Source: an uncultured Synergistota bacterium
GTDB lineage: Bacteria > Synergistota > JAGHAJ01
NCBI GenBank assembly: GCA_964559865.1
Contig: CAZLJD010000021.1
Span: 57,999 to 121,998 of the forward strand
DNA length: 64,000 bases
Direction: 5' to 3'
The position numbers and the translations under genes are program-made. The notes beneath the pieces were generated by a model that saw only the letters and a program-made list of their open reading frames with translations, was not told the origin of the DNA and did no database searches. This document shows, one piece after another, positions 8,044-47,688 of this stretch (position 1 is the first letter of the stretch; the number at the start of each line of letters is the position of its first letter).

Positions 8044-8046
8044 AGA

Positions 8047-8556: not shown

Positions 8557-9151
8557 TTAACACATCTGCATGAACAACGCTCTTTTCCCTTGTAGCATCT
8601 ATCAAAACCACATTTCTATCCTTCTTCTCTGAAAGAGCATAATATCCGTCCATCAACCTCTGAAAGAACACCATGTCGTTTCGCTCCATTCTGTCTCTAC
8701 TGCGGGACTTTATCCTCTCAAACGCCACATCCACCGGAAGAGTCAACACGATCGTTAGATCTGGAATATATCTACCCACAGCCCATCTGTTCAGGAGGTC
8801 TATAAAATCCTTGTCTATTCCTCTACCGTCACCCTGATACACTAAGGTAGAATCTATGTATCTTTCGCACACTACTACATATCCCTTCTCCACATAAGGT
8901 GAAATAAGATCCTCAACATGTTGCACCCTATCTGCCATGTATAAAAGAAGCTCCGCCTTGCTATTAATAGACACATTGCCTTCTAACAAAATTCTTCTTA
9001 ACTCTTTGCCAAGGGGGGTATCCCCAGGCTCAAAAGTGCATACAACTGGTAAACCTCTTCCCTTCAATGCCTCTGTTAACAACCTCACATGCGTGGTTTT
9101 CCCGCCACCATCTATACCTTCTAATGTTATAAGTTTACCCCTTTTTCTCAT
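8510..9151 (-). CDS. tmk: Thymidylate kinase
   Basis: 213 aa. P-loop ITLEGIDGGGKTT and DRY-like lid motifs. Confidence 0.9.
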   Translation of the reverse strand: MRKRGKLITLEGIDGGGKTTHVRLLTEALKGRGLPVVCTFEPGDTPLGKELRRILLEGNVSINSKAELLLYMADRVQHVEDLISPYVEKGYVVVCERYIDSTLVYQGDGRGIDKDFIDLLNRWAVGRYIPDLTIVLTLPVDVAFERIKSRSRDRMERNDMVFFQRLMDGYYALSEKKDRNVVLIDATREKSVVHADVLSVVLSYLEKVGYLEG

Positions 9152-9397
9152 GATACTATTTTACCACACATACCAAAAAACACGAGCCAAAATCAGTACC
9201 CACAAACACACACTCTAAGAGATGTACAAACTGCACACAACTAAAGAACAAAACCACAGGAACAAGTGGAGAAGAAGCGAAGCTGGTCCAACACAGAACA
9301 AGCACCACTATGCAGGTGTTACAGGCACACTGGGAATACTATCTACAACCGCCAAGAAATGCTGCAAACCACACCTGTACCAAAAAGCATATTCTTA

Positions 9398-9426
9398 TTG
9401 ACAAGAAAGAACAGGTCTAATATCAT
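9398..9426 (+). promoter_or_regulatory. Sigma-70-like promoter for the sensor kinase gene
   Basis: TTGACA (9398-9403), then a 17-nt spacer, then TATCAT (9421-9426). The ATG at 9460 is preceded by an AAGGAAGG SD. Confidence 0.4.
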
Positions 9427-9459
9427 ATTATCAGCAACTCGTATAAAGGAAGGTAGTTT

Positions 9460-10911: not shown

Positions 10912-11540
10912 CAAAAGTCCTAATTGCAGATGATCATCCAGTTGTTAGGGTAGGTTTAAGGCAAATACTTGCAGAAGACCCTCAAATAGAAGTAACAGGT
11001 GAAGCCTCCAATTTTCAAGATGTAATCAGCTTCGTGTGGAAAAACGAGTGCGACATAGTGCTATTAGACCTCTCAATGCCTGGAATGGACGGCCTTGACG
11101 CCGTAAAAGAACTAAAACAGATGAAACCAGAACTAAAGATCTTAATCGTCAGTATATACCCAGAAGAACAGTACGCTGTCAGGGCCTTAAAAGCAGGAGC
11201 ATCCGGTTACTTGACAAAAGAGAGTGCACCGGAAGAGCTAACCAAAGCAGTCAGAAAAGTTGCAACAGGTGGTAAATACATAAGCCCAACACTTGCGGAC
11301 ATCCTTGCAACCAAGATAAGCAAAGAAAGAGAAGGACCTCTACACGAATCCTTATCTGACAGGGAATACGAGGTAATGATCATGCTCGCAAAGGGGAAAA
11401 CGCTCAAAGAGATAGCAAGAGAACTCTCCCTGAGTATCAAAACTGTAAGCACCTACAGATCACGCATCCTTAGGAAGATGGGCTTCAAAAACAATGCACA
11501 AATAACTTTGTACGCAGTAAAAAACGGCTTAATACTGTGA
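10908..11540 (+). CDS. NarL/FixJ-family response regulator (REC plus LuxR HTH)
   Basis: Start at ATG 10908, giving MTKVLIADDHPVVRVGL. The ATGA overlaps the kinase stop. The C-terminal HTH reads LSDREYEVMIMLAKGKTLKEIARELSLSIKTVSTYRSRILRKM. Confidence 0.85.
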   Translation: MTKVLIADDHPVVRVGLRQILAEDPQIEVTGEASNFQDVISFVWKNECDIVLLDLSMPGMDGLDAVKELKQMKPELKILIVSIYPEEQYAVRALKAGASGYLTKESAPEELTKAVRKVATGGKYISPTLADILATKISKEREGPLHESLSDREYEVMIMLAKGKTLKEIARELSLSIKTVSTYRSRILRKMGFKNNAQITLYAVKNGLIL

Positions 11541-11556
11541 ATATTTTCACCTCTAC

Positions 11557-11584
11557 GAATGTGTAAGATAATTCCTACACATTC
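11557..11584. promoter_or_regulatory. Perfect 9-bp inverted repeat (GAATGTGTA-N10-TACACATTC) between the response regulator and the GRE operon. Candidate operator and/or weak terminator.
   Basis: Seen directly in the sequence. TACACAT resembles NarL-type heptamer half-sites. Confidence 0.35.
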
Positions 11585-11690
11585 TGTTTAAGTCTGCCTA
11601 CAAAGTTATCAGATATGAGAGGATACCATCTTAACTTTCCCTATGCTATGCTTAAACTCGGTTGAATTTTCTAAAAAAGGAGGATTTGGC

Positions 11691-25521: not shown

Positions 25522-26259
25522 ATGAGGAGAGTTGTTCCCACAAGATTGAGAAAGGACAAGTACACATTCTCCGCAGAAGAATTGGAAGGTATGTTTTCCG
25601 TACCATCGAAGATGCCAAAATGGGAGCCGATGTACACAGAGCTCACACACAGAGATGGCAGTAAACACCAGGTACTAATCAGAGAGATCAAGAAAGAGGA
25701 GATTGACCCAATGCTTGCATTCATCAAAAGGTACACAGAAATCGACTACGACTACTACGACATAGTTTCTGCAAGGGTATATGCAGAGCTACTTGCCATC
25801 AAAAGAAACAGAATGAAAGACGAATACTTCTTCCTTGCACTGGAAAATGGAAGTCCTGTGGGAATAATAAACGGTAGGATCATGAACAAAGATATAAATA
25901 TAAGCCTCCACACAATGGTATTTAAGAGAAGGATTAACGCTGGTCCAATACTTTTCTACGCAAAGTGCTGGTATGCATTCGAAATCTGTGGTCAACAGGA
26001 ATTTTGGGCAACATTCGAAAGTTACAATGGCTGGAGACTTGCAGGTCTCGGCATGGGACTACCCACCTACAAGTGGCCAGATGTCCAACACGAGCTTGGT
26101 GGCGCTAAGGTTTACTATCTCTCACGTGAGATGTGGGAACTAACAATAAGAGACGAGTATCCAGAGCAGGTAGCAAGGGCAAAACTCATGCCTAATCCTC
26201 CAAAAGAGTTAATCGAAGCAAACGAAAAGCTGATAATTCCAGAAGAAATAGAGGTTTAA
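25522..26259 (+). CDS. Uncharacterized conserved 245-aa protein. Paralog of 40979-41716. Family not recognised.
   Basis: Clear coding periodicity, strong promoter and SD, and an intrinsic terminator downstream. High similarity to the second copy across the YYDIV.ARVYAE...NGR.MN.DINISLHTM.FKR...YAKC.Y.FE...QEFWAT.ESYNG...GLGM..P.Y.WPDVQHELGGA.VYY block. Confidence 0.7.
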   Translation: MRRVVPTRLRKDKYTFSAEELEGMFSVPSKMPKWEPMYTELTHRDGSKHQVLIREIKKEEIDPMLAFIKRYTEIDYDYYDIVSARVYAELLAIKRNRMKDEYFFLALENGSPVGIINGRIMNKDINISLHTMVFKRRINAGPILFYAKCWYAFEICGQQEFWATFESYNGWRLAGLGMGLPTYKWPDVQHELGGAKVYYLSREMWELTIRDEYPEQVARAKLMPNPPKELIEANEKLIIPEEIEV

Positions 26260-26274
26260 ATTAAGATAGTTCAA

Positions 26275-26310
26275 GGGGGAGAAGCTTAAGCTTCTCCCCC
26301 TTTTGTTTTT
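26275..26310 (+). terminator. Rho-independent terminator (possibly bidirectional) between convergent genes
   Basis: GGGGGAGAAGC-TTAA-GCTTCTCCCCC is an 11-bp perfect stem. It is followed by TTTTGTTTTT. Confidence 0.7.
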
Positions 26311-28660
26311 ACTCTACTTCTTTCTTTCCCTGTAGAATGGCAAGCGCTACCTTCTCCGCAGTAACAGGCATAGATTTAATTCTGATACCAAGCGCATCCT
26401 CAACAGCATTTGCAACCATAGGAGCAGCAGGTATCATTGTATGCTCAGATATTCCTCTTGCACCAAACGGGCCGTCAGGTTGCGGAACCTCCACTATTAT
26501 AGGTACTATTTCTTTAGGCACATCCATTGCGGTGGGTATCTTGTAGTCAGTAAAGTTAGGGTTCAATACCTTACCCTTATCATCAAATCTCATATCTTCG
26601 TAGAGCACAGTTGCCAAGCCCTGGAGCAGACCACCGTTTATCTGACCCTTCACAAGATCCGGATTTATCGCTTTACCCGCATCTACAGCTTCCACTGCCT
26701 TCAGAACTCTCATCTTGCCAGTTTCCTTGTCTATTTCAAGCACCACGGCACCAGCACCAACCGTGTAGTGCACATTTGGGTGTCCTCCCTGCGAAGTCTC
26801 CGGATCGTCTACCGTAGTCGTAAACTCCGGCATAAATATACCCCTACCAAGGATAGGTCCACCTCTATACGTACCATCATGCGTCTGAATACCGTTTATA
26901 ACGAAGTCCTTAAGCGGCAGTTGAAATTCTGGATCAGTCTTGCACTTTACCTTCTCGTCCTCAAGGTATAATGTCTCCTTCTCGAGGTGATATGCCTGAT
27001 GCACAACCTCAAATATCTGCTCACGGGCGTCTAAGGCTGCCCTCTTAACTGCATTACCGCAGGACCAAGTAACATGAGAAGCAACTGTCTGCCATTCGTA
27101 TGGATTCCTATCCGTATCAGGTAGCTCAACTCTTATCTTCTCAATGGGCACAGAGAGTATCTCGGCAGCGATCTGTGCCATAACTGTCATATACCCCTGC
27201 CCTATCTCCATACCAGACACTACGATGTTTATACTACCATCTTCGCTGAACTTCAGGAATGCAGCAGAAGATGTATTCGGAGGCATAGCAGGTGCCTTCC
27301 AGAATATGGCAAACCCCTTACCAATAACCTTGTTGGGATCCTTCGATTCCTCTTTCTTGCCCCACTCAACCTCCTTGGCTACCTTATCTATGGCTTCTAT
27401 CAAACCATTTGGATTCATAGGTGCACCATAGGCGACAGGGTCTCCCCTTCTAATGGCATTTTTTCTTCTAAACTCAACAGGGTCCATACCTATCATCTTC
27501 GCTACTCTCGTCATATGGGACTCAATAGCAAAATGGGTTTCAGAATATCCAAAACCTCTATATGGACCCGCCGCCGGCTTGTTTGTATATACGCATATAG
27601 AGTCTATCCAGACATTAGGTATCCTGTAAGGACCAGTTGCAGAGAGACCCGCTGCATTCACAACATTTGCCCCATACTCTGCATACGGACCAGCATCCCA
27701 GTAAAGCTCATTCTTCAAGGCAACGATCGTACCATCTTTCTTAACCCCTACTTTTATCTTTGAAACAAGTGCCTGTCTCATATATGTGTTGTAGAACTCC
27801 TGTGCCCTCGTCCACCTAACTTTCACCGGATGCCCCTTCACAACCGTAGCAAGAGCCACAGCAAGTATCTCCATCGAAACCCCAGCCTTACCCCCAAAAC
27901 CGCCACCAACATACGGGACCACAACTCTGATATCTTTGTGGCTTATACCCAATGGTGCTAACGCCTGTGCAAACAGATTTCTCTGAGTATGGGGTGACTG
28001 TGAGCTGGACCACACCGTAATCCTTCCAGAATAATCATAAAGGGCAACAGATATATGCGGTTCTATACAGCAATGAGCATACCTCGGCACCCTGTAAGTG
28101 TCCTCAAATACAAAGTCTGCCTCGGCAAACGCCTTTTCAACATCACCCTTTCTGACTTTTCTCCAATGTGCAATATTTGTGCCCGGCTTCGGGAAGTACC
28201 ACGGCACATGCCAGTAATTGGCAAGGTCAGGATGTATTATTGGAGCATTATCCTTTAATGCCTCCATCTGATCGAGCACATAAGGAAGCTCCTCATATTC
28301 TACCTTCACCAGTTTCGCTGCCTTCTTAGCAGCCTTTGGATTTCTCGCCAGGACAGCCGCCACCTGTTCACCGATAAACCTAACCCTATCCTGTGCAAAG
28401 ACATATCTATCGTGCATATACAAACCAAACCTATAAGGGAAATCCTTACCAGTAACTACCTTAACTACGCCCGGAACCTTCTCTGCTTCAGATGTGTCTA
28501 TGCTCTTTATCAAGGCATGCGGATAAGGACTCTCCACTATCTCTGCGTAAAGGAGATTAGGACCAAAATCCAAATCATCTACATACCTGGCAGCACCTGT
28601 AACCTTATCTCTTTCGTCAAGCCTCGTAAACGACTTACCCACATATTTAAGCTCTTCCAT
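26309..28660 (-). CDS. Molybdenum hydroxylase large (molybdopterin-binding) subunit, xanthine dehydrogenase/CoxL family
   Basis: 783 aa. Ald_Xan_dh_C-type N-terminus and the GGGFGGK signature (YVGGGFGGKAG). Sits in an M-S-L operon. Confidence 0.85.
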   Translation of the reverse strand: MEELKYVGKSFTRLDERDKVTGAARYVDDLDFGPNLLYAEIVESPYPHALIKSIDTSEAEKVPGVVKVVTGKDFPYRFGLYMHDRYVFAQDRVRFIGEQVAAVLARNPKAAKKAAKLVKVEYEELPYVLDQMEALKDNAPIIHPDLANYWHVPWYFPKPGTNIAHWRKVRKGDVEKAFAEADFVFEDTYRVPRYAHCCIEPHISVALYDYSGRITVWSSSQSPHTQRNLFAQALAPLGISHKDIRVVVPYVGGGFGGKAGVSMEILAVALATVVKGHPVKVRWTRAQEFYNTYMRQALVSKIKVGVKKDGTIVALKNELYWDAGPYAEYGANVVNAAGLSATGPYRIPNVWIDSICVYTNKPAAGPYRGFGYSETHFAIESHMTRVAKMIGMDPVEFRRKNAIRRGDPVAYGAPMNPNGLIEAIDKVAKEVEWGKKEESKDPNKVIGKGFAIFWKAPAMPPNTSSAAFLKFSEDGSINIVVSGMEIGQGYMTVMAQIAAEILSVPIEKIRVELPDTDRNPYEWQTVASHVTWSCGNAVKRAALDAREQIFEVVHQAYHLEKETLYLEDEKVKCKTDPEFQLPLKDFVINGIQTHDGTYRGGPILGRGIFMPEFTTTVDDPETSQGGHPNVHYTVGAGAVVLEIDKETGKMRVLKAVEAVDAGKAINPDLVKGQINGGLLQGLATVLYEDMRFDDKGKVLNPNFTDYKIPTAMDVPKEIVPIIVEVPQPDGPFGARGISEHTMIPAAPMVANAVEDALGIRIKSMPVTAEKVALAILQGKKEVE

Positions 28661-28672
28661 CTCGCTCCCCCC

Positions 28673-29134
28673 TTACTGTTTCTTGGATGCGTCGAGTATC
28701 GCTTCAATTATAGATACATATCCGGTACATCTACACAAATTACCTGCTATAGCCTCTTTTACTTCCTCCTCAGTAGGATGCGGATTCTTCTCCAATAGCT
28801 CTGTAGCGGTAAGTGTCATACCAGGGGCACAAAAACCACACTGGAATGAATTGTGTTCTATGAAAGACTCCTGCAACGGCGTAAGCCCATCCTTGGACAG
28901 CCCTTCAAGCGTCACTATCTCTGCTCCATCTACCTCTATAGCAAATATGAGACAACTCCTAACCGACTTTCCGTTGAGTAAAATAGTACACGCACCGCAG
29001 TCACCTCTACCGCAAGCGTACTTAGGTGTCTTCACACCCAATTTCCCCCTTAAGACTTCAAGGAGAATGTCATTGGGTTCTACCTCTACACTCCTCATTT
29101 CGCCATTCAGTTTGAATGTTATCTTCTTCTTCAT
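28673..29134 (-). CDS. Molybdenum hydroxylase small subunit, 2x[2Fe-2S] (CoxS/XdhC-ferredoxin type)
   Basis: 153 aa. Plant-type cluster CGRGDCGACT plus the second cluster CGFCAPGM...CRCTGY. Confidence 0.85.
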   Translation of the reverse strand: MKKKITFKLNGEMRSVEVEPNDILLEVLRGKLGVKTPKYACGRGDCGACTILLNGKSVRSCLIFAIEVDGAEIVTLEGLSKDGLTPLQESFIEHNSFQCGFCAPGMTLTATELLEKNPHPTEEEVKEAIAGNLCRCTGYVSIIEAILDASKKQ

Positions 29135-29146
29135 GGCATATTCCCC

Positions 29147-30037
29147 CTATATAAGCCTCGTTCCATATTCTGGTCCTTCTCCCTTAAGACGACTTACCGC
29201 AGCTCTCAAAGCTCTCTTTAACATTACTTTAGACATGTGCATTCTATACTCTCTTGTAGCTCTTATATCCGTTATAGGAGATATTTCATCAACCACAGCT
29301 GCCATAGCTTCCTCCATCACACTCTCAGTGAGCTCCTTTCCACTAAGTATTGCCTCTATCTTTCTGGCTCTCACAGGCTTAGGGCCAACTGCACAGAAAG
29401 CAACCCTATACTCATTTCCCTCAATAGCAAGTACACCAACTCCTACCTGTGCGAGATCCTCACCATCGTATCTACCAAGCTTTATGTATGCCCCACCATG
29501 CCTTTTTTCCAAGACAGAGAGAGATACACCAACAACCATCTCTCCCTTTTCCAGAGCCGTCTTCCTTGGGCCAAGAAACCAATCCAGAACAGGGATCTTT
29601 CTCTCACCAGATGGTCCCTTAACTACAACATTAGCCTCATACAACAAAACAGCTGGTCCACTATCCAAAGATGGTACTGCAGAACACATGTTACCCACCA
29701 ATGTAGCCCTATTTCTTATACCCATAGACGCCACACTCTTGGAAGCCTCCCAAAGCACAGGGAAATTTTTCCTAACTACTTCAGAGTCTATCAGCTCATT
29801 AAAGGTAACGAGGGCACCCACAAAGAGGTGCCCATCTTTAAATTCAAACCTTTTAAGTTCCTCTATTCCCTTTATATCAACCACTGCTTTGGGGGTTTCA
29901 AATCCGTCCTTAACACGGACCACAAGGTCTGTTCCACCTGCAAGTACTGCCGCATCCTTTCCGTAATCCGAAAGTAGCTTAACGACTTCGTCCACGCTTC
30001 CAGGCTTAAAATACTCAAACTCATGCACTATAGCCAT
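29147..30037 (-). CDS. Molybdenum hydroxylase FAD-binding medium subunit (CoxM/XdhB type)
   Basis: 296 aa. FAD_binding_5 with an AGGTDL motif. CO-dehydrogenase-flavoprotein C-terminal domain. Confidence 0.85.
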   Translation of the reverse strand: MAIVHEFEYFKPGSVDEVVKLLSDYGKDAAVLAGGTDLVVRVKDGFETPKAVVDIKGIEELKRFEFKDGHLFVGALVTFNELIDSEVVRKNFPVLWEASKSVASMGIRNRATLVGNMCSAVPSLDSGPAVLLYEANVVVKGPSGERKIPVLDWFLGPRKTALEKGEMVVGVSLSVLEKRHGGAYIKLGRYDGEDLAQVGVGVLAIEGNEYRVAFCAVGPKPVRARKIEAILSGKELTESVMEEAMAAVVDEISPITDIRATREYRMHMSKVMLKRALRAAVSRLKGEGPEYGTRLI

Positions 30038-30058
30038 TACATTACACCCCCTAACTCT

Positions 30059-31699
30059 TTATTCTGGCATCCTAAACGCAACAAACCTACCCCACATAGA
30101 AGTAGCCTCTATTGCTCTGATGAGGTAAGCAGCTATGTAATACCTCCCACTCCCAAGGTTTCTTATGTCATTTCCAAGGTTCTCAGCATGCACAAGATGC
30201 TGCGGGAAGAGTTTTATGTGCATTACCTGATAGAACTCATCTATAGGATACATCTCGTCCCAATCCTTTCCAAATGCCTCTATTAGCTTCCTGTTTGCCT
30301 CCTCAAAGGTCTTTGGATGCCATATTCTCATTATAGTATTCATAGGGTGATCTGCGCTAACAGCATCTACTCCTATCCACTTTATCTTCATATCGAGTGC
30401 CCACTGTGGAAAGTCTGGAGATGGACCTGGGTGCTTGACCATATATCTAAATTCATCAGATTCTGGGGTATTCCAACCGTATTTCCACCATCCCGTCTTT
30501 ATAATCAGGATGTCTCCTTCACGAATGTCTACTACCTTCTTTATCATTTCTGGAGTATAAACACTCGAATTACTCACCATATCAGATATATCTGCAATAA
30601 CCCCAGGGCCCACCCACTCTTCGAGTGGCACTTGACCTATAGGCCTACCCGCTGGATAGAAGTGTATTTCACCATCCATGTGCGTTGCAAGGTGAATACT
30701 CGCATTACAGATAGAGCCGTTTCTCCCCATCCCAAACTGCTGGCCACCAACCCTCTTGTGGAACCTTACGCTCAATGGTTCGTAGTTCAACCACTGTGGT
30801 GTCCTCACGCTAAACGGCAACGTCATGTCGTACTTCTCCATGTTGTCAAGGGCACTGTAAAACTCCTCCTCATCCATACCATCTGGAGGCTGATAGGCAA
30901 CTACCCTAACCCACGCTGCTTCCGTTTCCATAAACGGTATAGGATAACCTACTATCCACGCACGCTGGTTTTTGAGTTTATCTACATCCCCACCTATGCT
31001 CTCAATAAACACAAGGTGAGCATTAGGCACCTTTATGTGCATGAGTTCATAATACCAGTCAGGTGGGAACATTTCGTCCCAGCTCTTGCCGTATTTTTCT
31101 TTTAATTTTGCCTCAGCCTTCTCAAAGTGTAGCTTGTGCATATACCTTATAGGTGTATTCATGGGATGTTCTATACTTCCACAATCCACCCCTACCCACT
31201 TAAACTTCATCTTTATAGCCCAATCAAAGAAATCTGGAGATGGACCCGGGTGCTGAACAAGATACTTAAATTCACTGGAGTCTGGTTTCTCCCAAGAATA
31301 CTTGCTGTAACCCGTATATATAATAAGTATGTCACCCTCACGGACATCTGCTTTCTTCATTATCATTTCTGGAGTATAGAGACTATAGTCGGAAACCTCA
31401 TCAGATATGTCAACTATAACACCCCTCCCACCCAGCTCATCCAGAGGGATGTCGCTTATTGCCCTACCTGCAGAGTTAAAACTCGTCTCTCCAACGAGAT
31501 GTGTACCTGTAGTGTTGCTCCAATTTAGTATCTGACCGTTTGCACCCTGACCACCACCAAATGCACCAGTAACCCTCTTAAAGAAGTGGATACCAAGGGC
31601 TTTGTCACCCGGCCATGGGGGGGTATATATACTCAGAGGCTGGGTGATATCATACATCTTCGCTGAGCTTAACATCCTTATGAACTCTTCATTTCTCAT
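30059..31699 (-). CDS. Tandem-domain cyclase-family (KynB/isatin-hydrolase-like, PF04199) metal-dependent hydrolase
   Basis: 546 aa made of two homologous ~260-aa cyclase domains. Domain 2 keeps the HxxTHxDxxxH metal motif (IHLATHMDGEIHF). Domain 1 has it degenerate (TTGTHLVGETSF). Both are paralogous to the 254-aa cyclase at 42699-43463. Confidence 0.75.
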   Translation of the reverse strand: MRNEEFIRMLSSAKMYDITQPLSIYTPPWPGDKALGIHFFKRVTGAFGGGQGANGQILNWSNTTGTHLVGETSFNSAGRAISDIPLDELGGRGVIVDISDEVSDYSLYTPEMIMKKADVREGDILIIYTGYSKYSWEKPDSSEFKYLVQHPGPSPDFFDWAIKMKFKWVGVDCGSIEHPMNTPIRYMHKLHFEKAEAKLKEKYGKSWDEMFPPDWYYELMHIKVPNAHLVFIESIGGDVDKLKNQRAWIVGYPIPFMETEAAWVRVVAYQPPDGMDEEEFYSALDNMEKYDMTLPFSVRTPQWLNYEPLSVRFHKRVGGQQFGMGRNGSICNASIHLATHMDGEIHFYPAGRPIGQVPLEEWVGPGVIADISDMVSNSSVYTPEMIKKVVDIREGDILIIKTGWWKYGWNTPESDEFRYMVKHPGPSPDFPQWALDMKIKWIGVDAVSADHPMNTIMRIWHPKTFEEANRKLIEAFGKDWDEMYPIDEFYQVMHIKLFPQHLVHAENLGNDIRNLGSGRYYIAAYLIRAIEATSMWGRFVAFRMPE

Positions 31700-31711: not shown

Positions 31712-32959
31712 TTACTCAATATTGTACTTCTCTGCAAAAGCCTCAAGGGCCTTCTCAAAAACCTCCATAGGAGCATCCACCAAACCCGCACCTACTTGTC
31801 CAACTCCCGGCTTCTTGTGTGCAACACCGGTGTCGATAAACGGAGGTATTCCCTTTTCCACTACCTTTACTATATCTATACCTGTTGGTGTGCCTCTAAA
31901 GTCCAGGAAAGGTATCTGGTAAACATTGTTCTCCCCAATAGTTATCTCATACATAGCAAGGGTCTTTTCGACGGATTCCTTGACGGTACCACCCACAAAC
32001 TGTATTATAGCCGGTGCCGCTGCTATTGCAAAACCTCCAAGACCAGCTGTCTCCATTATTGCACTGTCACCAATGTCAGGGTTAACATCCTCCTTTGTAA
32101 ATCCAGGGAACAACAGGACATCTGGTACAGGTGCCGGCGCCGTAAACCACTGATCACCAAGTCCCGAAACCTGAATACCAAAATCTGTCCCATTCCTAGC
32201 CATAACTGTTACCATAGTACTGCCTTCTATATTCTTTGCAGGATCGAGACTCACCTTCGCACTCGTCATAGCAAAACCAAGAAATGTATGTATATTCTCC
32301 TCCATAAATCTCATAACCTCATTGGTTTCATGGTGGTCCTTCATCGTCTCTGCCATAGCACCAGCAATCTTAGCAAAGAGCACATAAGATGCTGCTCTAC
32401 TCCTATTGTGTAACTCATCTCCCATATGCAACGCCTGTGCTATTATATTCTTGAGGTCAAGTTTTCCTATTTTTCTTATAGCCCTCTGCCACACCGGGAA
32501 CATGACATTTTCAAGCCACTTCAATCTCTCAATGACATCGGGTGAATAGGCACCCATTCTCAAGACCTTACCTATACCTTCGTTAAGCGTCTGGTAAGCT
32601 CTATTGCCGTGAGCCTCATTTTCGGTGATTATTACTGGCATCGAAGCCGATACTATGCCAGCCATTGGCCCTACTGTATTGTGATGATGACAAGGAGAAA
32701 ACTCTATCTCTCCAGATGCAGCCAGCTCCTCTGCCTCTTCGGGGGTCTTTGCAAGTCCTTCATACATCAGAGCACCTATAACCGCTCCTCTCTGTGGCCC
32801 ACACATTCTATCCCATGTAATAGGAGGTCCTGCGTGCAGAATGAGATTTTTCTTCATCCCGGGGATAACATCTATAGCCTTCCCCATATCCACCCACATC
32901 GGCTTAGCCTCTAACAAGATCTTCAATGCCTTCTCATTCGCCTTCTCGATATCAACCAT
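31712..32959 (-). CDS. ylbE: DUF1116 protein, YlbE homolog (putative oxamate-carbamoyltransferase subunit)
   Basis: 415 aa. Blocks LHAGPPITWDRMCGPQRGAVIGA, PCHHHNTVGPMAGIVSASMPV and DGNRAYQTLNEGIGKVLRMGAY match, as far as I recall, the conserved blocks of E. coli YlbE. Confidence 0.75.
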   Translation of the reverse strand: MVDIEKANEKALKILLEAKPMWVDMGKAIDVIPGMKKNLILHAGPPITWDRMCGPQRGAVIGALMYEGLAKTPEEAEELAASGEIEFSPCHHHNTVGPMAGIVSASMPVIITENEAHGNRAYQTLNEGIGKVLRMGAYSPDVIERLKWLENVMFPVWQRAIRKIGKLDLKNIIAQALHMGDELHNRSRAASYVLFAKIAGAMAETMKDHHETNEVMRFMEENIHTFLGFAMTSAKVSLDPAKNIEGSTMVTVMARNGTDFGIQVSGLGDQWFTAPAPVPDVLLFPGFTKEDVNPDIGDSAIMETAGLGGFAIAAAPAIIQFVGGTVKESVEKTLAMYEITIGENNVYQIPFLDFRGTPTGIDIVKVVEKGIPPFIDTGVAHKKPGVGQVGAGLVDAPMEVFEKALEAFAEKYNIE

Positions 32960-33019: not shown

Positions 33020-33404
33020 AATTATTTCACCCCTCAGTTACCACCTCCTTTCAAGCTACAATATACCATAGCAGTTGAATTTTTTCAAGTTTTCCAATAT
33101 ACAAATATTTACAAAGTTGCAGGCTTTCAAAACTTACCGTTTGTGTAATCTTCTAAATTTATAAGACAAAATCAATGACCTAAGCCTGCAGAATGTCAGT
33201 AAAATACTACAAAAACTCAATCTTCTCTTTCTTACTCATAAACTTGACAAAAGCAGCAGTTGTGATATACTTTCGAGCAGTTAATGAAGTGTTACACTTC
33301 TTCAAATTGGGGGGTGGTAGCGAAAGAAAGCTATCAAGTGTTTGAAGCATACTGAAAAGTGATCTACGGTTTAGGTAATCACTTTGAGGAGGGGAGGTTA
33401 CAGT

Positions 33405-34940
33405 ATGGCAGAGCAAACAACTATGCAAAAGGGTTGGGTTATATACCCAATAGGAAGCAGGCCTAAAATGGCATTGTCCTTCTTCCTTGGATTACAGCAC
33501 TATCTTACCATGTTCGGCGCAACCGTTAGTATACCATTGATACTCAGCGGTGCCATGAAGATGCCACCTCAGGAAACAGCACTCTTAATTTCCACCATAT
33601 TTCTGGCAAGCGGTATAGCAACACTCTTACAGCAGTACATAGGTAACAGACTACCTATAGTTCAAGGTGGGAGCTTTTCGTTTCTTGGCCCGGCATTCGC
33701 CATCATTGCATTGGTAGGTCAGCACGGCGGAAACTGGCAAAACATGATACAAACCGTATCCACAGCAATACTGTTTGGCTCATTCTTTGAAATTATACTT
33801 GGTTATAGTGGTTTGATGGGACAGATCAAAAAGGTCATAGGTCCAATAACGATAGCACCAACAATTACAATGATAGGACTCTCTCTGTTTGGGGTAGGTG
33901 CCCCATTCATGGCAGGAAACTGGACAATATCGGTCATCACCTTAATAGCACTAATACTCTACTCGCAGGTCTTCGCAAGAAAGTCGAGGGTATTTCTATT
34001 GTTCCCAGTTCTTCTGGCTATACTTACGGGTTGGATACTCTCTCTGATAGGAACGCTTACAGGCATAATTCCTCCTGGAAACCCTGCAAACCTTGCAAAA
34101 GGACTCCAACTAATACACAACTCTCCTTGGTTCTGGATAAGGCCAATCATACCATTCAAGTGGGGATTTCCACCCATTGACTCTGTAGTAACAGCAGGGG
34201 CAATAGGTACATTGGCAGGATACATAGCATCAATGGTGGAATCCATCGGAGACTATCACTCCTGCGCAAGGATAGCTGAAGGGCCTGTACCCACAGCAAG
34301 GATGATATCAAAAGGACTTGGGGCTGAGGGTGTTGGCTGTCTCGTAGCAGGTATTCTGCAGACCGGCAATGGAACCACATCTTACACCGAGAATATCGGT
34401 GCAATTGGTATCACGAGGGTAGCATCCAGGCGAGTGATAAAAGCAGGTGCAACTATAGCCATTGTAATACCATTCTTTGCAAAGTTTGGTGCGATCCTGG
34501 CCACACTACCGCAACCTGTCGTGGGCGCAATGTATGTGGGACTATTCGGCTTGATTGCAGCAGTCGGGTTATCCAACCTTCAGTTCGTCAACCTGAACAA
34601 CTCGAGGAATCTGTTTATACTTGGTCTGGCACTCTTCAGCGGTCTCACATTCCCAGCATACTTCAACGCCCACCCAATACATTGGGGTGCTCCCGGGACA
34701 CTAACAGGGACTCTCGGAGATATAGCTCAGACTATACTAACAACCGGCATGGCAGTATCAGCCTTTATCGCAATGGCTCTGGACAACTGGCTGCCTGGTG
34801 CAACACGAGAGGAAAGAGGCCTCGCAGTTTGGGAGAGAGAAGCAACAGAAGAGGCATGGATCGAAGCAGAGAAAGAGTGGGCAAAGATGAAAGTTGGGGA
34901 AGAGAGAAAATTAGAAGGATTCGAAGGCTCACAAAGTTAG
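33405..34940 (+). CDS. NCS2-family nucleobase:cation symporter (xanthine/uracil/urate permease type)
   Basis: 511 aa from ATG 33405 (GGAGGGGAGG SD). About 12 TM helices. NCS2-like N-terminus LGLQHYLTMFGATVSIPL. Confidence 0.8.
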   Translation: MAEQTTMQKGWVIYPIGSRPKMALSFFLGLQHYLTMFGATVSIPLILSGAMKMPPQETALLISTIFLASGIATLLQQYIGNRLPIVQGGSFSFLGPAFAIIALVGQHGGNWQNMIQTVSTAILFGSFFEIILGYSGLMGQIKKVIGPITIAPTITMIGLSLFGVGAPFMAGNWTISVITLIALILYSQVFARKSRVFLLFPVLLAILTGWILSLIGTLTGIIPPGNPANLAKGLQLIHNSPWFWIRPIIPFKWGFPPIDSVVTAGAIGTLAGYIASMVESIGDYHSCARIAEGPVPTARMISKGLGAEGVGCLVAGILQTGNGTTSYTENIGAIGITRVASRRVIKAGATIAIVIPFFAKFGAILATLPQPVVGAMYVGLFGLIAAVGLSNLQFVNLNNSRNLFILGLALFSGLTFPAYFNAHPIHWGAPGTLTGTLGDIAQTILTTGMAVSAFIAMALDNWLPGATREERGLAVWEREATEEAWIEAEKEWAKMKVGEERKLEGFEGSQS

Positions 34941-40914: not shown

Positions 40915-40978
40915 ACTTCATACCCCCCTCATACAAAAAGAGGGACGGGGCCTTCCCAAACCCCATCCCTTCAAACCC

Positions 40979-41716
40979 CTAAACGGTTACCTCATCGGGT
41001 ATAATGAGCTTCTCATTCTTCTTGAGGAGTTCCTCCGGTACGGGTCTCTGGAGTTTTGCACCTATATACCCCTCAAGGTAATCTTTCACAGTACTCTTCC
41101 AGTACTTGTAGTCCACATAGTACACACGGGCACCACCAAGCTCGTGCTGGACATCCGGCCAACGATAAGACGGTTGCGCCATTCCAAGCCCCCATCTCTT
41201 AAAACCATTGTAACTCTCGTATGTAGCCCAGAACTCCTTCTGATTGAGCGTCTCAAATGTATAATCACACTTTGCATAGTACATAGTTGCACCCACTCTG
41301 AAGCCTCTCTTAAATGCCATGGTATGCAAACTAATGTTTATATCTTCATTCATCAACCTACCATTCGCAAAACCTATCAGTTTACCATCTTCAAGTCCCA
41401 ACAACACATAAGGGTCTTTAAGCCTATTCCTGTACCAACCCAATATCTCCGCATATACCCTCGCTCCAACTATGTCATAAAAGTCATGGTCCACATCCAA
41501 GAAGTTACGCAAATACTTTAAAAGAAGGGGTGCTTCTTCTTTCTTAGCAGGCCTTATTACCATTGTTATTTTATCTCCGGCCTTGTTTTTCAGCTCCACC
41601 ATTGCAGGTTCAAACGGTGGGATATCCATAGATGGACCACTCAATATGGGTTCAATCTCCCTGATATTCAATCTAACTTCTTCATAACTTGACTTCTCCG
41701 GTGGTTCTTTCCACAT
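40979..41716 (-). CDS. Uncharacterized conserved 245-aa protein. Paralog of 25522-26259.
   Basis: Same length and conserved blocks as the first copy. SD and ATG are tightly spaced after the carbamate kinase gene. Confidence 0.7.
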   Translation of the reverse strand: MWKEPPEKSSYEEVRLNIREIEPILSGPSMDIPPFEPAMVELKNKAGDKITMVIRPAKKEEAPLLLKYLRNFLDVDHDFYDIVGARVYAEILGWYRNRLKDPYVLLGLEDGKLIGFANGRLMNEDINISLHTMAFKRGFRVGATMYYAKCDYTFETLNQKEFWATYESYNGFKRWGLGMAQPSYRWPDVQHELGGARVYYVDYKYWKSTVKDYLEGYIGAKLQRPVPEELLKKNEKLIIPDEVTV

Positions 41717-41739: not shown

Positions 41740-42687
41740 CTATTTAGCACGCACACGCGTGCCCACCTTGCCTTCCAAAGCATCAAGTGCGTTATCAAGA
41801 GAGCTTATTATAGCCACATCTCCCCCACCTTTAACAAATCTTAATGCTGCCTTAACCTTTGGCCCCATGCTACCAGCCTTAAAGTGTCCCTCTGCCTGAT
41901 ACCTCTCCAACTCTTCAACGGTAACTTCACCGATAGCCTTCTCCTGTGGGGTTCTAAAGTTTATCATTGCATGTGGAACATCTGTAAGTATCAAGAATAT
42001 ATCAGCCTTCACATCCTGCGCAAGCCTTTCGCCAGCAAGGTCCTTATCGATGACCGCTTCAACCCCCTTAAGCGTCCCATCCTCAAGTTTAATAACAGGT
42101 ATGCCACCTCCACCAGATGCAATGACAATTGCCCCTTTCTCTACGAGGGCAGAAACAACCTCCTTTTCCACTATCCCTATAGGGTCAGGAGAAGGCACAA
42201 CCTTCCTCCATCCCCTCCCACTATCTTCTATCCATGTCTCATTTTTCTCAGCCGCCCTCTTCTTCGCCTCCTCCTCGGTATAGAAGGGACCTATAGGTTT
42301 TGTGGGGTTCTGAAATGCAGGATCATCTTTGCTAACAAGCACCTGAGTAATCACCGTAGCTACTTCTCTACGGATGCCCCTCTTAATAAACTCGTTTCTC
42401 AAGCTTTGCTGAATCATATAACCTATCAAACCCTGACTTTCTGCACCACATATATCAAGAGGCATCGCAGGAACGCTATCAGAACCCTTCTCGTTCTGAA
42501 TCAATATTACACCCACCTGGGGTCCATTCCCGTGCGTTATAACAACCTCATAGCCTGCCTCAACCATTCTTACTATCTGGCTGCATGTTCTTCTCACATT
42601 CTCAAATTGCTCCTCAGCAGTACCTTTCTGACCCGGCTGAAGAATAGCATTTCCTCCGAGAGCAACAACAACCCTTTTACCCATCAT
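41740..42687 (-). CDS. arcC: Carbamate kinase
   Basis: 315 aa. [11 protein letters not shown]...[11 protein letters not shown] is the amino-acid-kinase family carbamate kinase signature. Confidence 0.85.
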
Positions 42688-42698
42688 ATCCCCCCTAA

Positions 42699-43463
42699 TT
42701 ATTCATCTTCAAATGCAACAACTCTACAAAAAGCAGACTCCCCACCTTGAAACTTCCAAGGAAACACGCCTATAGTAGTTCTCTTGTTCAAAAACTTGTC
42801 TATCTCTCCCCCTATATTCTCAACATGCAATATGCCTTTGGGGAAGAGATAAGTATGCATAAGCTGATACATTTCTGGCGGGAATATCTTATCCAACGGC
42901 TTACCCAGTTTCCTTTCAGCTTCCGCAGCATACTCCGGCTTGAACTTCCTGAGTATGGTATTCATTGGGTGATCTGCAGAACCACAATCTACTCCTATAA
43001 GCTTTATTTTCATATCCAGCACCCACTCTGCAAACTCCTTATGTGGTCCAGGATGCTTATAAAAATACTTGTTCTCGTCTGCCTCTGGCTGATCAAACGC
43101 ATAGTGGTGAAATCCAGTGTGTATTATCAAAATATCACCAGGCTTAATCTCGACTTTTTTCGTAAAGTGTTCTGGTTTGTAGATCTCATACTCTCCAACT
43201 TCGTCGCTTATGTCTACAACAACACCCGGTCCAAACAGCTCATCCATAGTAAGACTTGCTATGTCCCTTCCACCCGTCTTGAAATGTCTCTGCCCATCAA
43301 GGTGCGTTCCCACATGATTACTGGTTGTGATCAGTTGACCATTAGCACCATGAAAACTCCACCTCTTAAAATACTTCACCTGCAATGGCTCATAAGAGGG
43401 CCATGGAGGTGTCTCAACTCCTGTGGGCTGGGACAAATCATAAGCTTTCAATGTCATAACCAA
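42699..43463 (-). CDS. Cyclase-family (KynB-like) metal-dependent hydrolase, single domain
   Basis: 254 aa with an intact [12 protein letters not shown] motif. Paralogous to both halves of the 546-aa tandem protein. Confidence 0.75.
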
Positions 43464-43470
43464 TCCCTCC

Positions 43471-43659
43471 TCACTTTTTCTTAAGCTTTGAAAGTATAGA
43501 AATCAACTTCTTGTTACCACCTGCTGGAGGCCTCCAATTAACATGGACTGCCTTGTATCCCTTTCCCTTGAGTGTATCATAGAAACTCTTCAAACCCACA
43601 TTGACTACCACTAAATCCTGACCAAACAACTCGTTTATCTTTTCGTTCACCTTCGCCAT
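43471..43659 (-). CDS. Detached C-terminal segment of the FdrA-like protein
   Basis: 62 aa. LVVVNVGLKSFYDTLKGKGYKAVHVNWRPPAGGNKKL resembles, from memory, the extreme C-terminus of E. coli FdrA. It is in the same frame as fdrA, 12 nt after its TAA stop. An SD (AAGGGGGG) overlaps that stop. Confidence 0.55.
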   Translation of the reverse strand: MAKVNEKINELFGQDLVVVNVGLKSFYDTLKGKGYKAVHVNWRPPAGGNKKLISILSKLKKK

Positions 43660-43671
43660 CTCTATCCCCCC

Positions 43672-45225
43672 TTACTTCCCCTTCACTATCTCTATAGCTG
43701 TCCTGACTGCCTGAACATTACTCGGCATAACAACGACCCCGACCTCTTCTAACTTCTTTTGCTGTTCATCAAGGTTCTGCGGATCATCTTTTGTCCCACA
43801 TATAGACGCAACAACGGACAAATATCTACCATCCTTTTCCGCTAATTCCTTTGCCTCTTTAATATAAGGTGCCAGCGCTCCTGCCATATCCTCATTGGAA
43901 CCGTAACCAATAACAATATCAAGGAGTATAACTGCTACTTCAGGGTCTTTCGCCTCCTCCAATATCCTTTTCTGTCTTGTCCTTGGATCTATCATTGGGT
44001 GTGGTTGTCCCTGGGTAAACTCATCTTCACCAAGGTCTATAACGGTGTGCTTTTCACTCTTATATATGTCCTTCAGCTCGTACCCTTTGTGCAACGGGGC
44101 ATTAGAGTAGGTAGGTTCACCAAGTTCCTTTTCTATTAAATACATAGCCTCATCACAGAGCGTACCCCCAGTATAAAGCCCTCTAATATACTTCTGACCA
44201 TCAGCAAGCCTTTCTCTCTCCTTAACTGCCACTCGTTTAATCTGCTCCTCTCCTGGGATCTTTATGTCAGGCTCCCTACCGTCAGACAACGCTACTGCCA
44301 CAAGGGCCGTCTCTTCCAATGTCGTTGGAGCATAAAAGCCGTACTCTTTAACCATTTCAGGATCTCCATTTATAAAATCGACCACCACGGGTTTACTACC
44401 CTCTTTCAATACATCCAAAACCTTCTTTGCAACCTCTGGCGCAGGGGGTTTGGATATCACTACGATAACTTTCGTAGCAGGGTCTTCCTGTAATGCTTTT
44501 ATTCCTGCTATAACCATTTTCCCCCCCACTTCTTTCTTCAGGTCTCTACCACCAGTACCTATAGCCTGCGAGATACCTTTCCCGTTTTTAGCTATAATTG
44601 TGGAAACCTCCTGAAGCCCGGTACCAGAAGCTGCTACGATACCTATGTCACCTCGAGGGACCTCGTTGGCAAATGCGAGAGGAGCACCATTTATTATAGC
44701 CGTTCCACAATCCGGACCCATCATCAAAAGCCCCTTTTCATTAGCAAGGGTTTTAAGCTCTATCTCATCTTCTATTGGCACATTATCGCTAAACATAAAC
44801 ACATGCTTTCCTGCCATAAGCGCCTTTCTCGCTTCGTAAGCAGCATACTCACCTGCCACAGATATCATCACAAGGTTTGCATCAGGCATGTACTCAAAAG
44901 CACCTTCAAGGCTCACAGGAGAGTACTCCTCATCGCCTCCGGTTTCTTTCTTTTTCTTAAGAAGTTCATCTACCTTCTGGTAAGCCTCTTGAAGAATACT
45001 ATCGTCTTCTGCCTCCATTGCAATCACAAGATCATTCGCAGTCGCACCATCCAGTTTGCTGTCGTAAAGTCCAACCACGGAGAGAGACTCCTTATTGTGG
45101 TCCGTTGCCATAGCCACAACCACTTCTTTGATACCCTTCATCTCAGATATTTCCCTACTAACCAACATCAACGTAACCGAGTCATAATAAGAATTTTTCA
45201 CAACCTCAACCCTCTTAACTGACAC
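43672..45225 (-). CDS. fdrA: FdrA-like protein (succinyl-CoA-synthetase-alpha/CoA-binding fold), putative oxamate-carbamoyltransferase subunit
   Basis: 517 aa. N-terminus VKNSYYDSVTLMLVSREISE and central GPDCGTAIINGAPLAFAN...GIVAASGTG blocks match the FdrA family. Confidence 0.75.
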   Translation of the reverse strand: MSVKRVEVVKNSYYDSVTLMLVSREISEMKGIKEVVVAMATDHNKESLSVVGLYDSKLDGATANDLVIAMEAEDDSILQEAYQKVDELLKKKKETGGDEEYSPVSLEGAFEYMPDANLVMISVAGEYAAYEARKALMAGKHVFMFSDNVPIEDEIELKTLANEKGLLMMGPDCGTAIINGAPLAFANEVPRGDIGIVAASGTGLQEVSTIIAKNGKGISQAIGTGGRDLKKEVGGKMVIAGIKALQEDPATKVIVVISKPPAPEVAKKVLDVLKEGSKPVVVDFINGDPEMVKEYGFYAPTTLEETALVAVALSDGREPDIKIPGEEQIKRVAVKERERLADGQKYIRGLYTGGTLCDEAMYLIEKELGEPTYSNAPLHKGYELKDIYKSEKHTVIDLGEDEFTQGQPHPMIDPRTRQKRILEEAKDPEVAVILLDIVIGYGSNEDMAGALAPYIKEAKELAEKDGRYLSVVASICGTKDDPQNLDEQQKKLEEVGVVVMPSNVQAVRTAIEIVKGK

Positions 45226-46084
45226 TAACGATCCCTCCTTTTATAAGAATCTCCAAAGCCATAGCCACTCCGGTTAACCAATCACTTCCAGATGTGGCAC
45301 CAACACCAACCACATCAGACATAGCCTTATAAAACACACTTCCACCATCCACAAAGGTACTCCAAAACCTCTGATACACTTCAGGGACTTTGCCATGATA
45401 TAGATTGAATAGCATGTGTGCGCTAACCGCCGTAGTAGCATAAAACAACTCATCTTTTACATCGCCCAACCACGGTGCATCTCCAAGGAAGACACAATAC
45501 GCAGAAGAAAACCCACCAATCCAATCGTCAAGGGACGGAGTAAGTCCCACCCCTCTGCCCAACATTTTTCTAACATAAAAAGAGCCTCTCCTACCCGCCG
45601 CTACTTCACTCACAAAACATCTCAAGAGTTTGGCAACATCTTCGCAGTCCTGAAAAAATTTCCCGTCAAACAACAAGTGAGATAACTCCCCTTTTCCCTC
45701 TCTCCTAAGAAAATCCAAGACATTCATCAATCTATCAGATATAAGCCGCACATCGAATTTGCACACAGGTAACTTTGCATCCCACAGCTCTACATCCGCA
45801 GACAGAGGAATCCTAACCCTACTTCCCGACCAAACCAGAATTCCATCCTTATCTCTTATAGCAACCCTTCCACGCAAAAAAATATCTTCAAATGGCAGTA
45901 TCCTCCTTACCCTCACGCCAAACGGCACCATATACATACTACTCAACAGCAGGGACACGAACACACCATCCTCAAACACCAAATTCACTACCCTCCTAAA
46001 TACAGAGTGAACCTCCCCTTTTACGGCATCCCCATTCAGACCGTGTAAATCAGCATCTATCTTCTCAGCCAGTATGTTTATCAT
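45215..46084 (-). CDS. ylbF: DUF2877 protein, YlbF homolog
   Basis: 289 aa. GRGVGLTPSLDDW and GATSGSDWLTG blocks correspond to the conserved G.G.GLTPSGDD and GHTSG.D blocks of the YlbF family. Confidence 0.7.
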   Translation of the reverse strand: MINILAEKIDADLHGLNGDAVKGEVHSVFRRVVNLVFEDGVFVSLLLSSMYMVPFGVRVRRILPFEDIFLRGRVAIRDKDGILVWSGSRVRIPLSADVELWDAKLPVCKFDVRLISDRLMNVLDFLRREGKGELSHLLFDGKFFQDCEDVAKLLRCFVSEVAAGRRGSFYVRKMLGRGVGLTPSLDDWIGGFSSAYCVFLGDAPWLGDVKDELFYATTAVSAHMLFNLYHGKVPEVYQRFWSTFVDGGSVFYKAMSDVVGVGATSGSDWLTGVAMALEILIKGGIVSVS

Positions 46085-47688
46085 CAGTATCCCAAGACAT
46101 TGTGTATCTTTATTGCTAACTCTAACTTCAACACATCTTCCGCATTGTCGAGGTCTATACCCAATATGCTTTCTGCCTTTCTGAGCCTGTAAACAACCGT
46201 GTTGTAGTGCAGAAACATCTTCTTCGAAACGGTAGTAACATTTCTGTTACACTCAAAGAACATGTTCAGTGTATTTATTATCTCTTTACGCCTCTGCGTT
46301 GTACCGTAACTAAGCAACCTACCTAAAACTCTATCCCTGAAGCTCTTTAGTTCATCAAACGAAGCAACCTTGTAAAGTAAACCATAGACACCTACATCGT
46401 CCCTAAAAATTATCTTACTCCTATCCAGCTTGCTTCCAATACAAGCAGTCACATACGCATCCTGATAGCTCTTCCACGCATACCTTAACCCATCTACCGG
46501 CTCCCCAACGGCAACGATAGCACTCTTGTCCACAAACGAGCGTTCAAGATTGCTGATCAAGAACTCTAACATAGGAGAAAGCATCTTCCTAAGGTCTACG
46601 CCCTTATCCTTTTCATTTCCTACATCGACAAGCATCACAAAGAACTCCCCTATTACCGAGAAAAGCGCCTTCCTCTTAAACCTATTAGCCACATCCTTTC
46701 CTATGGAGATAAGCCTGTTCCTGACCCTTAGGATAAACTCTGCATCGTTACCAAGATGCTTATCTTTGAGCAAGAAAACCATAACGGCATACTTATCGTG
46801 CAACGAAAGGCCAAACACTCCAGCCTTCTCCAGCGCAAGAGATACTTTTTCACTATCCCCAGATAGGAGGTCACTCATAAATTCAGATTCGTACTTCAGT
46901 TCCACCTCGCTAATAGCCTGCTCTTTTACAAGCTCCAACGCTATCATCATAGAAGCTATCTCCGCTACTCTAACATCAAGAGGCGTTAACTCCCCGTTCT
47001 TACTGTAAAGGCATATATTACCATAGACATTATCACCAGACGCTATTGGAAAGACATTATACCCTTTCTTCCAGAAGATATCTTCCGTCGGCTCAGAAGG
47101 TAGCCCACTCGGTATCCAATCCTTGGAGAAGAAATATCTTCCATATACCAGATCCCTAACACATATAGGACAACCAACTATCTCAGCAGTTGCATCCATA
47201 ATATCCACTATACTCCCACCAGACAGTACAATGTTCATCAGCTTTTTGTGTGCTTCATCGCTCTTCACAAGTATTGCCATCTGTTTGTTGACTATCATCT
47301 TCATAACTGGTGACATTATGTCAGAGAAAGACAGGTCAAAAGGAATCTCCAAAAGCGGTATGTTGTACCTATCTGCAAACTCTACCATCTCTGGCGGTAT
47401 CTCTGTTAGATATCTCTTAGGTTTTATTCCAATAGCTGCTGCCTTCTTCTCAGCGAGCATGGGAATCAAAGCACACTGCGCCTCTTTATCATCTTTTATG
47501 GAGTATCCAGTCGTAAGCAAGAAATCTCCCGGCCTTATCCAATTGAGGATGTCAGGAACTTCCATAACATTCACATTAGTAACCACATTGGACAAGCCAC
47601 CAAGCCCAGCTACAACCTTTATGTCCTTAAACACATCAAGCTCCAACATATCCTTCACTGTTATTCCTAACTCATTCCTCATTTTCAC
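46084..47688 (-). CDS. PucR-family transcriptional regulator (purine catabolism regulator-like)
   Basis: 534 aa. PucR N-terminal domain. C-terminal HTH_30 (TVSKKMFLHYNTVVYRLRKAESILGIDL). Confidence 0.75.
   Translation of the reverse strand: MKMRNELGITVKDMLELDVFKDIKVVAGLGGLSNVVTNVNVMEVPDILNWIRPGDFLLTTGYSIKDDKEAQCALIPMLAEKKAAAIGIKPKRYLTEIPPEMVEFADRYNIPLLEIPFDLSFSDIMSPVMKMIVNKQMAILVKSDEAHKKLMNIVLSGGSIVDIMDATAEIVGCPICVRDLVYGRYFFSKDWIPSGLPSEPTEDIFWKKGYNVFPIASGDNVYGNICLYSKNGELTPLDVRVAEIASMMIALELVKEQAISEVELKYESEFMSDLLSGDSEKVSLALEKAGVFGLSLHDKYAVMVFLLKDKHLGNDAEFILRVRNRLISIGKDVANRFKRKALFSVIGEFFVMLVDVGNEKDKGVDLRKMLSPMLEFLISNLERSFVDKSAIVAVGEPVDGLRYAWKSYQDAYVTACIGSKLDRSKIIFRDDVGVYGLLYKVASFDELKSFRDRVLGRLLSYGTTQRRKEIINTLNMFFECNRNVTTVSKKMFLHYNTVVYRLRKAESILGIDLDNAEDVLKLELAIKIHNVLGY

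Follow-up and report, generated by a model that had tools for sequence, protein, structure and literature searches.

Two cistrons at one stop codon: allF and a separate gene for a counterpart of the E. coli FdrA tail in a Synergistota purine-catabolism island

The minus strand of a 64,000-nucleotide (nt) stretch of DNA from an uncultured Synergistota bacterium (contig CAZLJD010000021.1, positions 57,999 to 121,998; in the following the window) contains an open reading frame (ORF) for an FdrA-like (AllF) protein of 517 amino acids (aa) that ends with a TAA codon, and a second ORF of 62 aa that begins in the same frame four codons further downstream. This locus raises the question whether a single gene has been broken or whether two genes lie side by side. 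The original prediction had spoken of an fdrA gene "interrupted" by the stop and had named a genuine split, programmed readthrough, a recent nonsense mutation and a sequencing error as options. Based on our analysis allF and the 62-aa ORF are very likely two intact, separately translated genes, i.e. the TAA is the normal boundary between two conserved genes and the arrangement is ordinary. The notion of an interruption finds no support as the stop is conserved, the small ORF is under selection and the split is recurrent. From the four options the genuine split stands, whereas the other three are contradicted by the TAA of a sister lineage, by 33 versus 2 codon changes and by a frame relation that is not conserved.

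On the minus strand the junction reads ATA GTG AAG GGG AAG, followed by TAAGGGGGG, whose first three bases are the allF stop codon, the hexanucleotide ATAGAG and finally ATG GCG AAG GTG AAC. The spacer between the TAA and the ATG is 12 nt long and the frame offset is 0, exactly as had been described. The claim that the stop lies inside a Shine-Dalgarno (SD) sequence also proved correct, since the TAA opens TAAGGGGGG, which forms a duplex of -11.7 kcal/mol with the anti-SD, ~6 nt 5' of the small-gene ATG. The corresponding values for the neighboring AllF, cyclase, carbamate kinase and 245-aa ORFs range from -10.9 to -12.7 kcal/mol, so that the SD of the small gene is on par with those of its neighbors. 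A consensus scan of the junction revealed neither a promoter-like nor a terminator-like site. The N-terminus of the 62-aa protein, M-x-KVNE(L/K)..F, is common to other free-standing homologues, and the core of the product carries the motif VNxGLxSF...VHVxWRPPAGGNKK...LLSKLK.

AllF is one of the components of AllFGH, the oxamic transcarbamylase (OXTCase) of E. coli, which was identified only in 2024 and in which AllF is FdrA, b0518 (Kim & Kim 2024, PMC11326118). The 517-aa product contains the Pfam domains CoA_binding and Ligase_CoA and matches the NCBIfam FdrA profile NF004760 with 564.7 bits (E=2e-169; curated cut-off 433 bits) over profile positions 7-494 of 555, and it also matches the crystal construct of E. 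coli FdrA (Protein Data Bank (PDB) entry 3DMY; E=6e-89). An FdrA-like ORF ending at this TAA is thus indeed present. What its polypeptide lacks is the tail (profile positions ~500-555), and it is just this part that the 62-aa product supplies: it matches NF004760 at positions 500-555 (E=1.2e-12) and 3DMY at residues 428-474 (E=8e-7), bearing out the resemblance to the FdrA C-terminal tail noticed earlier. In terms of homology the 62-aa ORF corresponds to the final ~55 residues of E. coli FdrA. Judged by its profile scores, allF clearly belongs to the AllF/FdrA family, the one deviation being that its tail is on another chain. The expected genomic partners allG, allH and carbamate kinase all lie within the window, and AllF proteins without tail, 503-541 aa in length, are recurrent among relatives. 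Searching the small proteins against Pfam, even at E<=10, yielded only noise and no family that covers the module.

If a recent nonsense mutation or a sequencing or assembly error had broken a ~580-aa fdrA, the downstream ORF would be a decaying remnant, and the position of both ORFs in one frame, only four codons apart, as well as the single polypeptide that contains FdrA and tail in E. coli would be in line with such an event. However, a sister lineage, represented by L009-L012 from four separate assemblies and ~80-82% identical to the window at the nucleotide level, has a TAA at the homologous allF codon (GGA AGA TAA GGAGGTGTTAGAAT ATG GCA AAA GTG AAT), and its 14-nt spacer places the small ORF in frame +2 relative to allF. 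Between the window and L009 the small ORF differs at 38 of 189 nucleotides, corresponding to 33 synonymous but only 2 non-synonymous codon changes; for AllF, 210 synonymous and 39 non-synonymous differences separate the window from the sister lineage. Because the TAA is kept at ~80% nucleotide identity and the codon changes are distributed 33 to 2, neither a sequencing error nor a recent nonsense mutation can account for the stop, and a broken fdrA is also at odds with the full-strength SD, the conserved N-terminus of the small protein and the identical split arrangement in distant lineages; we regard its probability as negligible. As far as codon changes can tell, the comparison identifies the small ORF as a translated, separate cistron under purifying selection, and neither mark of a pseudogene, i.e. 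close relatives without the stop and weakened selection on the sequence behind it, is found. Independent assemblies covering the stop, a check that had been proposed, are available from the sister lineage; an ENA contig (L003) with 100% identity to the window across 12 kb is not counted here, as its assembly may not be independent. The 517-aa AllF is called at the same length in L009-L011 and in L003, and the exact 62-aa and 517-aa proteins, together with variants of the same length and >=90% identity, are on record from several sources.

The split is not confined to these close relatives. A word-indexed search with the 62-aa protein gave 7 hits and thereby six further free-standing proteins (P0002-P0007; loci L002 and L004-L008 of other anaerobes; 55-58 aa, or 55-60 aa in the comparison of loci), which are 57-64% identical to the window protein and, like it, are encoded directly 3' of allF with an SD abutting the stop. 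A scan of genome contigs with AllF found only two relatives, both ~50% identical, in one of which (L001) the module is fused to AllG, whereas it is free-standing in the other (L002). Altogether, six independent lineages (the window, its sister, L002, L004/L005, L007 and L008) have a free-standing gene for 55-62 aa directly 3' of allF, and in most of them the allF stop abuts a GGAGG-type SD (TAAGGAGGTG, TAGGGAGGGG, TGAGGAAGAGGAG and TAAGGGGGG). With its own start and SD and its position directly 3' of allF, the 62-aa ORF is a typical case of these module-only proteins of 55-70 aa.

These lineages also bear on programmed readthrough of the TAA, by which some 583-aa AllF-tail fusion would be made beside the 517-aa and 62-aa products. 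The in-frame 12-nt spacer without further stops would permit this in the window, but the spacers of the six split lineages vary from -1 to 33 nt and their frame offsets are 0, 0, 1, 1, 2 and 2. Since two in-frame cases out of six are what chance predicts (one in three), the common frame of the two ORFs in the window is a coincidence without significance. The closest relative is out of frame with its 14-nt spacer (+2), as are 4/6 lineages in total; L008, the only other in-frame lineage, has a second in-frame stop, so that in other lineages readthrough would meet with frame +1 or +2, with a 1-nt overlap or with a further in-frame TAG. A zero-frame relation conserved across relatives, as expected of a recoding site, is not observed. 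Moreover, the stop is a TAA followed by G, no recoding element was seen and Rfam gave nothing in the window. Thus, we consider readthrough very improbable. Gene pairs that are coupled via an SD overlapping the upstream stop are a general feature of bacterial operons, and the pair in the window resembles them in its stop within TAAGG(A/G)GG, its short spacer and the lack of a promoter or terminator in between; its sole peculiarity is that both cistrons form one polypeptide in E. coli. Domains that form a protein of their own in one lineage and part of a fusion in another, with coupling at the junction, are commonplace.

The comparison of orthologs with respect to a fused or split state, which had also been proposed, uncovered three states of the module, i.e. 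free-standing, fused to AllF and fused to AllG, and possibly a fourth, in which it is joined to both. A profile built from seven free-standing proteins and searched exhaustively against 1.84 billion cluster representatives matched 1172 clusters at E<=1e-3 and 231 at E<=1e-10. Among the best 150 of the 1172 clusters 52 are free-standing-like (~70 aa or less, module alone), at least 13 are fused to AllF, at least 7 are fused to AllG and one (P0142) combines AllF, module and AllG, the others being fragments at contig ends. This census is a lower bound, as it covers only the best 150 clusters with their many contig-end fragments, and its ranking is biased since the profile was built from free-standing members. 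Among the matches listed, 63 of the 65 proteins of at most 72 aa begin with M. P0142 itself is a fragment of 355 aa in which the C-terminal region of AllF, the module and the N-terminal region of AllG are found on one polypeptide; it may represent a full AllF-module-AllG fusion or a metagenome artefact caused by a missed stop or frameshift.

At the C-terminus of AllF the module occurs in E. coli, both in the chromosomal FdrA (3DMY) and on many plasmids, as well as on a megaplasmid of Brevibacillus laterosporus. In the latter case, a 1.38-Mb "plasmid" (L013), the module is read continuously with AllF, and the allF-tail region is without listed annotation in a record that has only 16 features in total (PLSDB table).

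Among the matches listed, over 100 partial proteins of many different phyla carry the module at the N-terminus of AllG, and a profile of the module plus the AllG N-terminus matched 1856 proteins at E<=1e-5. The source labels of the AllG-fused proteins include Clostridia, Spirochaetia, Thermotogae, Bipolaricaulota, Anaerolineales, Verrucomicrobia, Elusimicrobia and Hadarchaeales. In L001, a metagenome-assembled genome of the Bacillota, the module makes up the first ~50-55 residues of both AllG proteins, and the preceding allF products have no tail. When these AllG proteins were used in a tblastn search they matched the small ORF of the window, and matched the allG of the window only from their residues 59/65 onward. 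The L001 locus holds two tandem allF + module-allG pairs (534 + 471 aa and 529 + 480 aa), i.e. a duplicated OXTCase core. In such N-extended AllG/DUF1116 proteins (471 and 480 aa in L001, 474 aa in the fusion P0275) this same module, with the sequence VINIGL...W(R/K)PP..., occupies the first ~55 residues in covalent linkage, and the AllG part is up to 72% identical to that of the window, a value reached by P0275; the AllG of the window (415 aa), in contrast, starts right where the module would end. The linker from the module to AllG is short and constant (~3-8 aa), whereas the one from AllF to the module is variable (~8-38 aa). An alignment of natural fusions (A4) was used in place of one that combined small proteins with full-length AllG (A2), in which the small proteins had been misplaced.

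In all these arrangements the order of genes or domains is AllF, module, AllG. This Rosetta-stone pattern, in which the module is fused to either or both of its neighbors, suggests that the module lies between AllF and AllG, and the three-way distribution is a hint at a location at the AllF-AllG interface. As its most likely role we propose that of a small subunit of the oxamate carbamoyltransferase (AllFGH) which connects AllF with AllG, although we rate the chances of this role as no better than even. Ribosomes that finish allF would come to their stop inside the SD of the small gene, where re-initiation or recruitment could take place, i.e. the two genes would be translationally coupled. 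Coupling would in turn keep the module and AllF at roughly equal levels, much as the fusion does in E. coli; both the coupling and this stoichiometry we infer from the arrangement of the junction.

Structure prediction with AlphaFold2 (AF2) is suggestive of such a role. Alone, the small protein is predicted with a predicted local distance difference test (pLDDT) score of 54 as a helix-strand-helix-strand-helix module of ~50 residues, which is too low in confidence for a fold search. Within the natural module-AllG fusion P0275 the module reaches a pLDDT of 82-90 and the whole chain a predicted template modelling score (pTM) of 0.88, and the AllG part of this model superposes on the AllG homologue 3CLQ with a template modelling (TM) score of 0.94. 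When the fused model was compared with the PDB by Foldseek, the module gave no hit and 3CLQ, which matched the AllG part, was the sole entry found. The PDB holds no AllF-AllG complex; FdrA (3DMY) and an AllG homologue (3CLQ) are represented there only individually.

Several points weigh against the reading developed here. Independent support for the stop comes from the sister lineage and not from L003. The coupling and the AllF:module stoichiometry are predictions from the sequence. The AF2 contrast (82-90 versus 54) is confounded by alignment depth, as 62 versus 7 sequences cover the module, and the module-AllG contact is suggested by AF2 confidence scores rather than seen directly. Finally, the module gene lies beside allF, with allG 10.5 kb off, which fits an AllF-associated role at least equally well. 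The small protein might accordingly act with AllF only, e.g. by contributing the missing part of the AllF fold or dimer in the manner of the 3DMY construct, and the AllG fusions would then be accidents of adjacency. The inclusion of the tail in the E. coli FdrA crystal construct and the fact that the small gene stays with allF in the window and the sister lineage, while allG is 10.5 kb away, would agree with this. Fusion to the AllG N-terminus is, however, very common, taxonomically wide and made via short, constant linkers, and the module is predicted fairly confidently in the AllG-fused context; we consider a partnership with AllF only the less likely of the two roles but a serious alternative. 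Returning to the role as a link, the module could be a distinct, unnamed fourth component of oxamate carbamoyltransferase, a mobile adaptor that is free, AllF-attached or AllG-attached and physically couples AllF and AllG, a proposal that to our minds might go either way. If this was true, the three-gene enzyme of E. coli would consist of four evolutionary units, and in many anaerobes, including the organism studied here, the enzyme would need a protein of 55-65 aa that is often missed by annotation pipelines.

E. coli AllF and its counterpart in the window are alike in belonging to the NF004760 family, in their CoA_binding and Ligase_CoA domains, in sharing an operon with allH and carbamate kinase, and in lying in a purine/allantoin island. 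They differ in that E. coli AllF is one chain of 555 aa including the tail, which is a separate 62-aa product in the window, and in gene order, which is allH-allF-small gene-cyclase-carbamate kinase with a distant allG in the window but allF-allG-allH-allK in E. coli. The window also departs from L002 and L004-L008, where allG is directly 3' of the small gene; here this place is taken by a cyclase-family gene. Conversion of oxalurate and phosphate to oxamate and carbamoyl phosphate by the purified complex has been shown only for the E. coli enzyme (PMC11326118), and the AllFGH genes of the window are accordingly to be read as a predicted OXTCase. AllFGH forms carbamoyl phosphate from oxalurate, from which carbamate kinase then makes ATP (PMC11326118).

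For annotation our findings imply that allF should not be flagged as pseudogene, frameshifted or recoded, and that the 62-aa ORF deserves annotation as a genuine gene. Reconstitution of OXTCase from Bacillota or other anaerobes may need co-expression of the small ORF. Overall, this is a modest refinement and no surprise; mildly new are the small protein family, which has no Pfam family, and its three-way distribution, neither of which is described in the OXTCase papers that we found, where the small ORF is not mentioned.

Table 1. Positions and properties of the features discussed, in the window and in related loci (L numbers)
Feature	Position	Strand	Remarks
PucR-family regulator, directly upstream of allH	46084..47688	-	Pfam PucR, GGDEF_2, HTH_30
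allH, predicted oxamate carbamoyltransferase subunit	45215..46084	-	PF11392 AllH E=1.4e-13; end overlaps allF start by 11 nt
allF/fdrA-like gene, 517 aa, without C-terminal tail module	43672..45225	-	GTG start 45225, TAA stop
allF TAA stop, conserved, no lesion	43672..43674	-	TAA at homologous codon in L009-L012
SD TAAGGGGGG overlapping allF stop, 6-nt spacer ATAGAG, then ATG	43660..43674	-	anti-SD duplex, relatives
62-aa free-standing gene, AllF-tail/AllG-N-terminal module	43471..43659	-	ATG 43659; homology, selection, profile search
Cyclase-family (PF04199) gene directly 3' of small gene	42699..43457	-	Pfam Cyclase E=1.3e-35
Carbamate kinase (allK/arcC-like)	41740..42687	-	TIGR00746 arcC E=3.8e-138
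245-aa ORF, last operon gene	40979..41716	-	conserved in L003, L009
Terminator-like hairpin at operon end	40941..40970	-	13 pairs + T run; consensus scan
Xanthine/uracil permease	33384..34940
allG, 415 aa, without module, 10.5 kb away, head of another operon	31712..32959	-	PF06545 AllG E=1.4e-93; 3CLQ E=6e-121
Genes following allG in its operon	26309..31699	-
245-aa ORF, paralogue	25522..26259	+
L001, two tandem allF + module-allG pairs	6001-12052
L013 (NZ_CP011076.1), allF with continuous module	269565-277702
L004 cyclase gene	6543-7337
L006 cyclase gene	1542-2333
L007 cyclase gene	6500-7297
L008 cyclase gene	6538-7338
L004/L005, allH-allF-small-allG-cyclase			allF stop TAG; spacer 13 nt; frame offset 1
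L007, allH-allF-small-allG-cyclase			allF stop TAA; 1-nt overlap (TAAATG); frame offset 2
L008, allF-small-allG-cyclase			allF stop TAA; spacer 33 nt, extra in-frame TAG; frame offset 0
L002, allF-small-allG			allF stop TGA; spacer 10 nt; frame offset 1
L006, small-allG-cyclase			contig ends before allF; allF stop, spacer and frame outside contig

The small gene is part of an operon on the minus strand (Table 1) that runs from the PucR regulator via allH, allF, the small gene, the cyclase gene and the carbamate kinase gene to the 245-aa ORF, with intergenic distances of -11 to +23 nt, and is closed by a strong terminator-like hairpin. For the cyclase gene SD spacing and the gene calls in L003 and L009 make ATG 43457 (252 aa) the likely start and not TTG 43463 (254 aa). 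In the second operon allG is followed by genes for a 546-aa tandem-double cyclase (PF04199 x2) and for xanthine-dehydrogenase-like FAD, 2Fe-2S and Mo subunits. XdhC, molybdenum cofactor (MoCF) biosynthesis genes, an aldehyde:ferredoxin oxidoreductase and a xanthine/uracil permease are also present, and the whole represents an anaerobe's island for purine/allantoin catabolism. At Rfam gathering scores no family was detected anywhere in the 64-kb window, i.e. no tRNA, rRNA or riboswitch, and thus also no purine riboswitch 5' of the permease gene.

Window and sister lineage share 98% aa identity in AllG and ~92% in AllF. The AllG of the window is, moreover, 70-85% identical to proteins labelled Atribacteria, Caldiserica and Spirochaetaceae. 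This high conservation hints at either strong constraint or horizontal transfer.

A cyclase-family gene (PF04199, arylformamidase-like) always comes after allG in the related loci and after the small gene in the window, where the three copies of the PF04199 domain are 44-45% identical. The gene appears to be a conserved companion of the OXTCase genes, and one guess is that it may encode an amidohydrolase with oxamate or a related product as substrate.

The two 245-aa ORFs gave no match in Pfam and NCBIfam searches. They are paralogues with 50% identity, and both are located within the purine-catabolism island.

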